In this document: positions 5,343 to 16,688 of the stretch, piece by piece
Position numbering within the stretch: position 1 is the stretch's first letter
How the letters are laid out: every line of letters begins with the position of its first letter
Sequence record: NC_041919.1
Origin: Escherichia phage HP3
Length of the DNA stretch: 64,000 nucleotides
Reading direction: 5' to 3' (one strand)
Position numbers and translations under genes: made by a program
The notes under the pieces: model-generated
Database searches by the model: none
What the model was told of the DNA's origin: nothing
What the model saw: only the letters and a program-made list of their open reading frames with translations

Positions 5343-8300
5343 TTATTCAACCCATTCAAATTTAACAGTTTTATTCACTGGGTCAGGAATAATGCGAACA
5401 TTACCAATTCGTAAGAAATCACGAATAGTAAGATTACCTATTATTCCATTATCAGATGGGATCGCTCCTATATCTGAAGGTTGAGGAGGGTTACCTCCGT
5501 CAAATACCTGAACAAAACTTGACCAAGAGTTTTTGGTTTTCTGCCATGTACGTGTCCAGCGAGTGGTACGTGCTTCTGGGGTCGTTGGATAAGTAATCCA
5601 ATCTTGGTAAAGCGAATCAAGTGTGTTACCAAACTGAGTCAATGTACCAGGAGATTTAACTTCTTCGCCACGTTCTAAGTATGGAAGCCCAGTCACTTCA
5701 TTAGTTTTTTCAACCATTTTAAAATAACCCGGGAACTGGTTATAAGTGGCTGAATCATTAATATCGATTGACCAGAATCCTACAGTATCAGATGTCGGCG
5801 CGCGGGTATATAAATCAGAGGTTTTAGTACCCTGAGAACGAATTCTCGAGTTAACAGTCAAACCACCCGAACTTATAGTAGCACCTTTTGCAATGATTAA
5901 GCTTTCACCAATCGTTACTTGGCCAGATGCATTATTAATAGCTAAAGGACGCAATCCATTAAATACGCCAGTTTGATCACCCGATGCAGTAAGCATAAAA
6001 TTCGTTACTGATCCATCATTGCGAACAATGAAACCATAATTTCCGTTAATAGCACGGAAAGCATTTGCGCTTCGAGAAATAATTTCACCAGTTGCAGTGA
6101 CTGAATTACCAAATGTTGCTACACCATTTGCATTCAATGTTCCTGAAGCATTAACATTTATCGGTGTTACTGTACCGTTGATATTAAATGTTATATTTCC
6201 AGCTTTATTACGCTGAGAATAAAAATGACTAGACGTTTCATCACTAACTTCAAATACGGTAGAACGTGTTGTGTCTGATTCCCCACTAAATTGATTTCCC
6301 CACACTCTGACTGTCATCGTTTGAGCCGGGTTTGTTCCAGTTTGAGGTCCTTTCTCAAAAATCAGACGAGTTGCCGTTCCAGTATTAGAAATAGTTAATG
6401 TACTATTTGCTGAAACTGATCCACCGAATGTAGCAGTACTAGATGATACAAGAGGGGCACTCAGATTCGTTTGTTGGGTTAAGGTTAGTGAACCATTAAC
6501 TGTTTGTGCAATGTCCCTACGAATGAACTGGAGCGAATCTAGACCATCTAATAAATTACTATCTACGGCTTTTGCTTTTAATGGCAAATAATTTGCTAAT
6601 ACGCGATTTAATTCATATGGTGATACTGCATAACCATTTTTCTCATATGATTCTAATGGCTGTGTTGAACCAGCTGTATCATTACCAACGAATGTAATTG
6701 AACCAGACGAAGTTTTAACAAAACCTCTTATCGCAGTAGTCGCTGCCCAAGTAGGTTCACTCTGCACAATCCATTTTAAATTTTTTGGAGATACAGCAGT
6801 ATTTGCTGACGTTCCAGCTACAGTTTCAGACCGAGTTGCAACTTTAATAACGCCTTCCTGTGCTTCAGTAGATTTAGTACCTAAAAGCTTTTTAGGAGTT
6901 ATTAAAACATTATCTAATGTTCCTGCAGCAGCTTCAACTTGTGTAGCTACACGAAGTGTACCACGCTGTGTCTCATTTGCTTCAAGAATATTAAGGGTAT
7001 AATGGTCCCAGAGAGTTCCTGATTCAACTAATCCAGATAGAGCAACAACAGAAGTACGATCAGTACTATTAAATCTGGTTTTAATTTTTAATGGTGTAGA
7101 GATACGAGTATCGTCGACGCCTGCGTCGAATTCAACCTGTGTAGCAATTTCAGCTATACCACTTAAACTTTCAGTTGCTCTACGGTCATTTAAAGTTTTA
7201 GGAGTGACTGCACGAGTATAATCAGTTCCTGTATTAACTTCACTTTGCGTAGCAATTTCAATTAAACCAATTCTTCCATCAGTTGATGTCTTTTTATGTA
7301 ACGTTTCTGGTGTTACAACCGCATTTGCCCATCCTTCTTGGCTTTGTCCAGCAATTACTTCACTTTCAACTGCTAAAATTACTGCGCCTTGTTGCGTTGG
7401 AGTAGCTTTATACTGATCCAAAGCTTTAGGTGAAACAACTAAATTATTAGTGTTTTTATTATAAACATTCGTACCATTTAATTCACGACTAGAAGCTGGA
7501 GTAGCTCCTGCAGTAGATACAAAAGTTACAATACCCGATAATGTTTCAGAACCTTGACGAGCTTGAAGCTTTTTAGGAGTGATGATTGTAGTATCATCGA
7601 TACCTGTATTAGTTTCCTGCTGCGTAGCAATTTCAGCAACACCTCTGCGAGTTTCTGTAGCAGTTCTTTCATTCAGCTTTTTAGGAGTGATGATAAGGTC
7701 ATCTGCAAAAGAGAATGTAGTGTTCTGATTTACTTGAGCAGTAGTTGCTATTCTTGCAATACCTCTGCGAGTTTCAGTAGCAGTACGATTAGCTAACGTT
7801 TCTGGAGTAATTGCTAATTCTTTTTGTGGAGAATTTTCTAAATCAGCATTTGCTTGAGCTTGCGTAGCTAAAGCAATTACGCCTAATCTTGCTCTAGTAG
7901 AAGCATTTAAAGAGTCTACTCTTTCTACAGTTGGAACGTTTTGCTGTACAACCCAGTATTTTCCATCAGAATCTTCTATATAAGCAAGTTGCAAAACTGG
8001 TACATAATTAGTTTCACCATTAAAAACTAATTCTTGAACTGTTACCCATTCAGCTTCAGGCGGATATTCTGAACGTTTTGGGAATTGCAGCAATTGAACT
8101 GAAGAAGCAATTTTATCTTCACCAGCAGCTTTGATTTTAACTGTTTGTCCTTTTCTCATGTAATTCATGGAAATTTTAACAGTATCACCAACAGAAATAT
8201 CAGTCGGAAGCTGAAGTTCAATTGTTTGGGTTGTTCCATTATTCGCGCCAAATACCATGACTTCTTCATTTGGACGAATATTTGAATTAGTTGTTATAAT

Positions 8301-14267: not shown

Positions 14268-15094
<827 letters not shown>

Positions 15095-15114
15095 AATAAC
15101 ACGTGGCGGAAAAT

Positions 15115-15462
15115 ATGAATTTTAATTATTACCCTATTCTATTAGAAGAAGACGCGAAACAGCCAAAGTGGCAGGGTCCTCAGTTTATTAAAGGTGTCTA
15201 TCAATTAGTAGTTCCTAAAGACAAGATTTATAGCAGTTGTTTCACTGAATCCGCTTGCAGTATTTTCGGTAATAGTTCTCCGTATTGGAATTTTGACATA
15301 AAGCTGGATAGAAATATCGATATTTGGTTGAAAGCTATGGATATTGGTAATATCACGTTTGATGAGAATAATTATCATATTATTGGTCGCTTTTCCAAAC
15401 GCGGTAAAGAATTATATTTCACGCCTGAAATTGAGAGAAAATTTGATGCTAAACCGTATTGA
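15115..15462 (+). CDS. hypothetical protein inserted between frd and td
   Basis: 115 aa from ATG 15115 (ORF track starts at GTG 15103); no motif recognised; sits where T4 frd and td abut. Confidence 0.5.
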   Translation: MNFNYYPILLEEDAKQPKWQGPQFIKGVYQLVVPKDKIYSSCFTESACSIFGNSSPYWNFDIKLDRNIDIWLKAMDIGNITFDENNYHIIGRFSKRGKELYFTPEIERKFDAKPY

Positions 15463-15507
15463 TTATTTAGCTTCATAAAATGTATTATAATTTATATAAG
15501 GTACTAA

Positions 15508-16056
15508 ATGAAACAATACCAAGATTTAATTAAAGACATTTTTGAAAATGGCTATGAAACTGATGACCGAACGGGCACAGGAACAATTGCTTTGTTCGGT
15601 ACTAAATTACGCTGGGATTTAACTAAAGGTTTTCCTGCAGTAACAACTAAGAAGCTCGCCTGGAAAGCTTGCATTGCTGAGCTACTTTGGTTTTTATCAG
15701 GAAGCACAAATGTCAATGATTTACGATTAATTCAGCATGATTCGTTAATCCAAGGCAAAACAGTTTGGGATGAAAATTACGAAAATCAGGCAAAAGATTT
15801 AGGATACCATAGTGGTGAACTTGGCCCAATTTATGGAAAACAGTGGCGCGATTTTGGCGGTGTAGACCAAATTATAGAAGTTATTGATCGTATTAAAAAA
15901 CTACCAAGTGATAGGCGTCAAATTGTTTCTGCGTGGAATCCAGCTGAACTTAAATATATGGCATTACCACCTTGTCATATGTTCTATCAGTTTAATGTGC
16001 GTAATGGTTATCTTGATTTACAATGGTATCAACGCAGTGTAGATGTTTTCTTGGGT
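15508..16056 (+). CDS. td: thymidylate synthase, exon 1
   Basis: 183 codons MKQYQDLIKDIFENGYETDDRTGTGT...QRSVDVFLG; reading frame broken by an in-frame TAA at the 5' splice site after ...TTGGGT. Confidence 0.9.
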
Positions 16057-16376
16057 TAATTGAGGCCTAGGTATAAGGTGACTTATACTTGTAATCTATC
16101 TAAACGGGGGACCTCTCTAGTAGACAATCCCGTGCTAAATTGTAGGACTACCCTTTAATAATTTCATCAGGATTAGTTACTTACCGTGTAAAATCTGATA
16201 AATGGAATTGGTTCTACATAAATGCCTAACGACTATCCCTTTGGGGAGTAGGGTCAAGTGACTCGAAACGATAGACAACTTGCTTTAACAAGTTGAAGAT
16301 ATAGTCTGATCTGCATGGTGACATGCAGCTGGATATAATTCCGGGGTAAGATTAACGACCTTATCTGAACATAATG
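16057..16376 (+). ncRNA. group I self-splicing intron in td, lacking a homing endonuclease ORF
   Basis: Starts TAATTGAGGCC..., ends ...CTGAACATAATG with terminal G; conserved td-intron core segments (GGTGACTTATACTTGTAATCTATCTAAACGGGG, CCCTTTGGGGAGTAGGGTCAAGTGACTCGAAACGATAGACAACTTGC, CATGGTGACATGCAGCTGGATATAATTCCGGGGTAAGATTAACGACC); 320 nt, no ORF >= 60 aa in any frame. Confidence 0.85.
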
Positions 16377-16688
16377 CTTCCATTTAATATTGCATCATAT
16401 GCTACGTTAGTTCATATTGTAGCTAAGATGTGTAATCTTATTCCGGGAGATTTGATATTTTCCGGTGGTAATACTCATATCTATATGAATCACGTAGAAC
16501 AATGTAAAGAAATTTTGCGTCGTGAACCTAAAGAGCTTTGTGAACTGGTAATAGGCGGATTGCCTTATAAATTCCGCTATCTTTCTACTAAAGAACAATT
16601 GGAATACATTCTTAAACTCAGGCCTAAAGATTTCGTTCTCAAAGATTATCAGTCCCACGGCGTCTTGAAAGGAAAAATGGCGGTGTAA
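16377..16688 (+). CDS. td: thymidylate synthase, exon 2
   Basis: LPFNIASYATLVHIVAKMCNLIPGDLIFSGGNTHIYMNHVEQ... continues the TS fold; exons 1+2 give 286 aa, as in T4 TS. Confidence 0.9.
   Translation, partial: LPFNIASYATLVHIVAKMCNLIPGDLIFSGGNTHIYMNHVEQCKEILRREPKELCELVIGGLPYKFRYLSTKEQLEYILKLRPKDFVLKDYQSHGVLKGKMAV

Follow-up and report, generated by a model that had tools for sequence, protein, structure and literature searches.

Genome plasticity in T4 and its relatives is associated with the variable regions of T4-like genomes. These regions, and the small ORFs between gene 32 and nrdA of T4 (frd.1, frd.2, frd.3, nrdA.1 and nrdA.2), resemble the 115-codon ORF considered here, which lies between frd and td and which we refer to as ORF115: presence varies among relatives, and start and stop codons overlap. 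The gene 32-nrdA ORFs are short and of unknown function, as is ORF115, and they are prereplicative, as ORF115 probably is. ORF115 differs from them in being missing from T4, in being more conserved than most (dN/dS about 0.04) and in forming arrays of tandem paralogs; because T4 lacks it, it was never covered by T4 genetics.

Both the indel and the ORF within it are already known as features, and are annotated in hundreds of T-even genomes. The nearest described counterparts are RB32ORF229c/RB14ORF231 (YP_002854567) and an ORF left without annotation in the frd-td sequence of T2 (AY310907), which are 99% identical to ORF115 at the amino acid level and occupy the same position; in the RB14 RefSeq record the gene is named “RB32ORF229c hypothetical protein”. 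A 9-bp flanking repeat is common to RB14, T2 and the window (i.e., the whole 64,000-nt stretch of phage HP3 DNA analysed here), and the RB14 record describes the gene as “flanked by 9 bp repeat”. The window protein differs by one residue from the T2/RB14-type protein (E12 rather than K12), and the window td has an ORF-less intron whereas td of T2 and RB14 is intronless.

The window is a segment of a Tequatrovirus (T-even) genome, with the gene order gp32, frd.3, frd.2, frd.1, an extra 81-aa ORF, frd, ORF115, td, nrdA.2, nrdA.1 and nrdA; its parts from frd to td given below lie on the + strand. The frd gene (dihydrofolate reductase, DHFR; 14513..15094) encodes 193 aa, has 96% nucleotide identity to T4 frd, and ends with the TGA at 15092-15094. 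The left copy of the direct repeat TAAATGAAA (15088..15096) takes in the final codon and the stop of frd as well as an overlapping ATG (15091-15093), which with the following AAA TAA makes up a mini-ORF of two codons (15091-15099). In agreement with the first-pass annotation, frd (ending at 15094) and td (starting at 15508) are separated by 413 nt (15095-15507), in which the sole sizeable ORF is ORF115 (15115..15462). It starts with ATG, encodes 115 aa of PHROG family 1928, and is preceded, 4 nt upstream, by the Shine-Dalgarno-like sequence GGCGGA (15105..15110). ORF115 is present as a single copy with spacers of 20 nt on the frd side and 45 nt on the td side, and no second copy of its family was found elsewhere in the window. 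The spacer before td (15463..15507) contains approximately 30 nt that represent an insert relative to phages F2 and SF, as well as a possible td ribosome-binding site (AAGG, 15498-15501), and the right copy of TAAATGAAA (15505..15513) includes the td start codon. The td gene (thymidylate synthase, TS) consists of exon 1 (15508..16056), a 320-nt group I intron that contains no ORF (16057-16376; Rfam RF00028, 70.3 bits) and exon 2 (16377-16688). The 81-aa ORF between frd.1 and frd (14268-14513) abuts the frd start and is not in T4; it corresponds to RB14ncORF233c of the RB14 annotation, and adds a further small indel to this gene cluster.

T4 (NC_000866) does have the overlap of frd and td that had been claimed, which amounts to 4 nt (ATGA), and the window has 417 nt of extra DNA when the alignment is measured from one TAAATGAAA copy to the other. 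The 413-nt segment is present in 361 phage records at 80-100% identity, and the ORF115 protein is matched in 587 records (by tblastn), T2, RB14, RB3, AR1 and PP01 among them. The overlapping junction of the T4 type, as detected with a 37-nt junction-specific probe, occurs in 32 records, about half of which are T4 itself or its laboratory derivatives. An empty, overlapping frd/td slot with the same junction sequence is found in T4, RB69 (Mosigvirus) and VR7 (Gaprivervirus), and ORF115 is polymorphic for presence and absence inside both Tequatrovirus and Mosigvirus. Among the T-even and RB phages proposed earlier for comparison, T4 and RB69 are empty and T2, RB14 and RB3 are occupied. With 361 occupied against 32 empty records, the ORF-bearing arrangement is the majority state in Tequatrovirus, and T4 carries an unusual, minority allele. 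The first-pass annotation had spoken of an insertion, which is right in the sense of an indel relative to T4 but misleading because the ORF-bearing state is the majority. Our preferred reading, to which we assign a probability of roughly 0.55, is that the frd-td segment represents a conserved accessory-gene cassette, of an ordinary kind for T-even phages, rather than a private insertion; the status of ORF115 as a gene, its family and its distribution are, taken by themselves, held with high confidence to be as described here. As a genome feature, the segment is largely ordinary and of little importance. At this locus it is T4, the reference phage, that is atypical, and a strongly constrained gene of most of its relatives was never studied.

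The pattern of substitution in ORF115 is that of constraint on the protein. Between the window and F2 there are 30 synonymous and 9 non-synonymous differences (dS 0.73, dN 0.033, dN/dS 0.045), and dN/dS among other Tequatrovirus/Mosigvirus pairs is 0.015-0.046. The frame is intact across hundreds of genomes, and the family is recognisable down to about 30% identity with its motifs kept. One could argue that an old insertion left junk DNA behind in which ORF115 is spurious or decaying, and that only the promoter-like spacer matters, given that the whole segment is missing from fully viable T4 and that no database assigns it a function. The synonymous excess, the unbroken frame, the distant homologues with conserved motifs and the confident fold prediction described below all speak against this; we regard it as already refuted by the selection and conservation data, and give it next to no credence. 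The same data, together with the predicted structure, indicate that ORF115 is a genuine gene for a small folded protein under strong purifying selection.

ORF115 matches the profile of PHROG 1928, a family whose function is listed as unknown, with an E-value of 8.2e-36; the alignment spans residues 4-111 of the protein and positions 2-125 of the 126 in the profile. An exhaustive profile search of 1.8 billion representative proteins gave 23 matches, 21 of which are standalone proteins of 95-116 aa; two longer matches (P0021 and P0023), considered as possible multi-domain relatives, are repetitive eukaryotic sequences and were rejected as false positives. In a wider profile search we found only hypothetical proteins of 113-119 aa from T4-like contigs, none of them fused or named. 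The first-pass annotation had listed the 115-aa product as lacking any recognisable motif, and searches of Pfam, NCBIfam, PADLOC and the PDB sequences, with the single protein and with profiles, indeed returned nothing credible. The ORF is at the same time widely conserved and annotated (as RB32ORF229c/RB14ORF231 and in PHROG 1928), with no function assigned. Nothing turned up in the literature under the ORF names or the PHROG number, and the T4-genome reviews examined do not cover this ORF.

The family has three motifs, LLExDxxQxKW, (H/K)G(I/V)Y and IGRFxKxGxxxxF, and its invariant or near-invariant residues are Q16, W19, G27, Y29, G91, F93, K95, G97 and F102. All of these are present in the window protein, as are the shorter signatures of membership (QxKW, G-x-Y and GRFxKxG....F). 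Members are neutral to basic (pI 6.6-9.4) and rich in aromatic residues. Structure prediction, which had been recommended for this product, gave a confident AlphaFold2 model (pLDDT 90.7, pTM 0.83, based on an alignment of 24 sequences), with strands at 6-12, 27-34, 62-64, 86-96 and 99-104, a helix at 68-77 and a possible short strand at 80-82. The predicted product of ORF115 is thus a compact domain that resembles a beta-barrel and includes a single helix. In the order of its secondary-structure elements it would fit an OB-fold (five strands, with the helix between strands 3 and 4); no significant structural similarity to solved OB folds was found.

Records of the BASEL phages annotate the ORF as “putative homing endonuclease”, and a selfish mobile gene able to drive its own insertion at the frd/td junction, such as a free-standing homing endonuclease, would be in keeping with the label used in some GenBank records, the patchy distribution, the short flanking repeats, the horizontal transfer described below, and a T4 neighbourhood that is rich in such genes (segG, mobE and I-TevI). 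Presence/absence polymorphism between collinear genomes is indeed seen (361 versus 32 records), but it is not specific to homing endonucleases. The protein itself argues for something else. With the window protein and 24 family members, no catalytic motif of the GIY-YIG, HNH, LAGLIDADG, PD-(D/E)XK, His-Cys or EDxHD types was found in Pfam or NCBIfam, and no Pfam nuclease match was credible (the best single-member E-value was 0.011). The invariant residues are Q16, W19, G27, G91, K95 and G97, with no conserved Asp, Glu or His for a metal site, and a length of 95-119 aa comes with no separate DNA-binding domain. In addition, the translational coupling within the operon in most genera and the tandem paralogs are unlike homing endonuclease genes, and the flanking repeat is a generic junction motif. 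We consider a homing endonuclease very improbable. Labels for the same ORF conflict among the records MZ501113, MZ501066, MZ501089, OR125554 and OK274152; those in use are “putative homing endonuclease”, “putative glucose-1-phosphate adenylyltransferase” and “dihydrofolate reductase”, none of which is supported by any search in this analysis. Such labels should not be propagated.

Besides Tequatrovirus, at least six other genera have homologues at the same place. In several genera, relatives that are 30-45% identical lie directly downstream of frd; these occupants of the slot are found in Jiaodavirus, Mosugukvirus PM2, Kanagawavirus ZX14, Moonvirus Moon, a Gelderlandvirus, a Klebsiella phage and metagenomic T4-like contigs. 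Most of these loci have a second ORF of approximately 115 aa before td, which is a paralog (hhalign probability 99.3%, E 1e-20); one contig has three copies in tandem (98.8% and 75% for the two extra copies), and another has two (98.3%). In Jiaodavirus there is one copy, which overlaps both frd and td. At every inspected locus the family is located between frd and td of a T4-like phage, as one to three tandem paralogs whose stop and start codons usually overlap, and it is known only from T4-like (Tevenvirinae) phages of enterobacteria. PHROG 1928 and the paralogous sister group (of the Kanagawa-, Mosuguk-, Moon-, Gelderland- and Jiaodaviruses) share with the window gene the domain, the position after frd, and the motifs LLExDxxQKKW, HGxY and GRFxKxG. 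In these genera there is overlap of the genes with frd, with one another and with td, and pairs or triplets are usual, whereas the window copy is single, is set off by spacers, and has a ribosome-binding site of its own as well as a promoter-like insert.

The slot can also accommodate an unrelated ORF of 69 aa, which in contig L013 (4670-4879) is the third occupant. In JS98 (Dhakavirus, NC_010105; L015), a 202-nt frd-td “gap” (6215-6416, minus strand) contains an ORF of about 68 aa (MSNKLKVKDVPNAMALF...) that lacks annotation; it overlaps the frd stop by ATGA and is homologous to the 69-aa ORF of L013. An ORF of Klebsiella phage Clarke_MM3 is probably homologous to this JS98/L013 slot ORF.

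The sequence TAAATGAA(A) is common to the end of frd, the start of ORF115 and the start of td, and the ends of the indel fall within it. In the window TAAATGAA occurs 18 times against 9.4 expected, a count reached by none of 100 shuffles. In Mosigvirus SF, frd is joined to the ORF exactly at TATAAATGAA (…TATAAATGAATTTT…), where the window has 24 extra nt; this 24-nt spacer, which contains the GGCGGA, is missing in SF, and the overlap between frd and the ORF there is ATGA. Deletion between two TAAATGAA motifs would produce exactly the T4/RB69 junction and leave both enzymes intact, and acquisition could occur by the same microhomology, or by homologous recombination within the frd and td flanks. 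With the junction motif at the ends of the indel, whole gene modules can be lost or gained precisely; part of this mechanism is visible in the junctions themselves, and the remainder we infer. The frd-td junction in this way illustrates how T-even genomes may add or drop whole genes, via a stop/start motif, with no harm to the neighbours. In F2 (L017, 1136-1226) and RB14 (L005, 2436-2526), two extra A residues before the frd stop cause a frameshift, which adds 11-12 codons to frd and makes it run into the start of ORF115.

Between the window and SF, identity is 61.6% for frd, 89.9% for ORF115 and 79.8% for td exon 1. SF is a mosaic, with RB69-like frd (96%) and td (96%) on either side of a Tequatrovirus-like ORF115 (90% to the window, 98% to F2), and F2 is a mosaic of a different kind, with T4-like frd (86.5%) and Mosigvirus-like td (89%). 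A recent transfer of ORF115 between Tequatrovirus and Mosigvirus is visible in these identity levels, and the mosaic pattern points to intergeneric recombination around the frd-td slot. Since ORF115 is 90% identical where frd is 62% identical, the gene seems to have been gained, lost and exchanged at microhomologies.

The presence of the family in distant genera favours an ancient occupant of the slot. This is also favoured by the comparison with contig L013, where ORF115 (63-66% amino acid identity) and Frd (about 56% nucleotide identity) have diverged to a similar degree. Either loss in the T4 lineage or gain in the T2 lineage would account for the difference within Tequatrovirus, and the empty junction in three genera keeps the alternative to an ancient occupant alive. 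In the window, 13 of 15 positions at the left junction agree with the td start, which points to gain; the resemblance is weaker in T2, F2 and RB14.

Several other origins were considered. A target-site duplication is an unlikely source of the 9-bp repeat, whose motif is of a generic kind found at junctions, and T2, F2 and RB14 do not share the similarity that extends past 9 bp. Hitch-hiking with the I-TevI-containing td intron was also rejected: the ORF is found with intronless td, with the ORF-less intron and with the I-TevI-containing intron, and the stretch that separates the ORF from the intron site, td exon 1, shows lower conservation between genera than the ORF itself. Promoter-early/stem-loop (PeSL) cassettes are said to have been described by Arbiol and colleagues in 2010 as shuffling elements of T4-type phages. 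At the present locus, the early promoter and flanking stem-loop of such a cassette were not seen, as there is no terminator-like hairpin and sigma-70-like sites are at background. The RNA folds of the two spacers are not significant (z-scores of -1.8 and +1.6).

Expression of ORF115 can be considered in the light of the T4 middle promoter Ptd, whose start site is listed in the Hinton review at 145142 (PMC2988021, Table 1), within frd and 30 nt ahead of the td ATG. Its counterpart in the window (15030..15061) is identical in sequence to that of T4 and also lies inside the 3' end of frd; it consists of TGGTTGA (15030-15036), 12 nt, TAAAAT (15049-15054), 6 nt, and A15061, which matches the T4 start site. 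Here it precedes ORF115 rather than td, at a distance of 54 nt. Because Ptd is conserved and upstream of ORF115, the gene is probably transcribed with the middle, prereplicative genes. Transcripts would come from frd read-through and from Ptd, alongside those of the prereplicative nucleotide-metabolism genes, a pattern of expression that we consider somewhat more likely than not.

The first-pass annotation had overlooked Ptd, and had instead noted a promoter-like sequence before td, whose two elements, AGCTTCA (15469-15475) and TATAAT (15486-15491), are present as it described. The first is similar to a MotA box, and both are part of the approximately 30-nt insert in the spacer. The MotA box consensus is (a/t)(a/t)(a/t)TGCTTtA, located 12+/-1 bp from a sigma-70 -10 element, and MotA tolerates deviations (PMC2988021). 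The spacer sequence tttAGCTTcA agrees with six of the seven core positions (the first T is A). When the distance from box to -10 is counted as calibrated on T4 PnrdB, PI-TevIII and Ptd, the TATAAT is separated by 10 nt from AGCTTCA, and the canonical 12-nt spacing is obtained only with the weaker -10 sequence TAATTT (15488-15493). The spacer shares with the T4 MotA/AsiA middle promoters PnrdB and PI-TevIII the GCTTCA core and a TAnnnT 12 nt downstream, and differs from them in the first T of the box and in having its perfect TATAAT at the wrong distance. In the 64 kb of the window, GCTTYA-N12-TANNNT occurs 6 times compared to 2.4 expected (approximately 2.5-fold), with five of the six on the + strand. 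The element is missing from the short spacers of F2 and SF, and a start site here would give td a leader of only 8-10 nt. A MotA-type middle promoter is plausible for this element, with a loose fit to the consensus that is suggestive, and the insert may restore to td a dedicated middle promoter. One more sequence of the relaxed middle-promoter pattern, GCTTTA-N12-TATAGT, is found inside the td intron (16282-16305, + strand).

The nature of the conserved residues gives some guidance on function. They are basic, aromatic or glycine; neither acidic residues nor histidines are conserved, and this speaks against a metal enzyme such as a nuclease. In the model, QxKW would be placed in the loop that follows the first strand, with GRFxKxG in the final hairpin. 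As a module of OB-like topology, ORF115 would use the basic and aromatic residues of these two motifs to bind nucleic acid or a partner, and among the closest known systems in this respect are small OB-fold subunits and domains (RPA14/RPA32, Stn1-Ten1, Teb1, HIN and S1 domains). We tentatively propose, as a possibility well short of an even chance, that ORF115 is a non-enzymatic binding protein, with either nucleic acid or a protein as its partner, that acts in the prereplicative phase with DHFR and TS. If it does act with these enzymes, it would be an added component of the classic T-even nucleotide-synthesis machinery. Against a functional link, T4, RB69 and VR7 do well without ORF115; the gene is dispensable because T4 lacks it, and its synteny with frd and td may reflect frozen gene order only, with no functional linkage.

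A stronger form of the same idea is that the family of the frd-td slot is an unrecognised class of small OB-like proteins that couple DHFR and thymidylate synthase, physically or regulatorily, to nucleic acid. The coupling could possibly take the form of a dNTP-synthesising complex tethered to DNA, or of a translational or mRNA regulator of the operon, and the tandem paralogs would then form heterodimers. If true, this family would have been missed by five decades of genetics in T4, which is without it. We think this coupling unlikely.

As the main rival reading of its function, ORF115 might be an anti-defence or host-takeover gene. Its product would then be a small protein of the early or middle phase that neutralises some factor of the host; the gene would spread horizontally since it is adaptive in some hosts, and would be found between frd and td only because this junction tolerates insertions. 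Its presence/absence polymorphism in Tequatrovirus and Mosigvirus, the intergeneric transfer, the variation in copy number from one to three tandem paralogs, and the small size of the protein and its lack of an enzymatic motif would all fit. The very low dN/dS would not, with no diversifying selection seen, and neither would a position that is strictly conserved across genera and translationally coupled to frd and td. The protein is not acidic and so is no DNA mimic, and there is no PADLOC match, although that library consists of defence rather than anti-defence proteins. With these points on either side, an anti-defence role has perhaps one chance in several, and the accessory-gene cassette remains our preferred description of the locus.

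Two further features of the locus are of minor interest. First, the td intron varies among these phages: that of T4 is about 1 kb and encodes I-TevI, and that of the window is without the endonuclease ORF. The same ORF-less intron is 100% identical in U115, ESh30, L14 and HP3.1/HP3.2, and 99.7-99.8% identical in Elenatom and Pinarejo, and other relatives have either an intronless td or the I-TevI form. Second, a 20-nt imperfect direct repeat with 75% identity links positions 15030-15049 (TGGTTGAAACGCATTGGTAT), in the MotA-box region of Ptd within frd, to positions 15325-15344 (TGGTTGAAAGCTATGGATAT) inside ORF115, a similarity that is probably due to chance.
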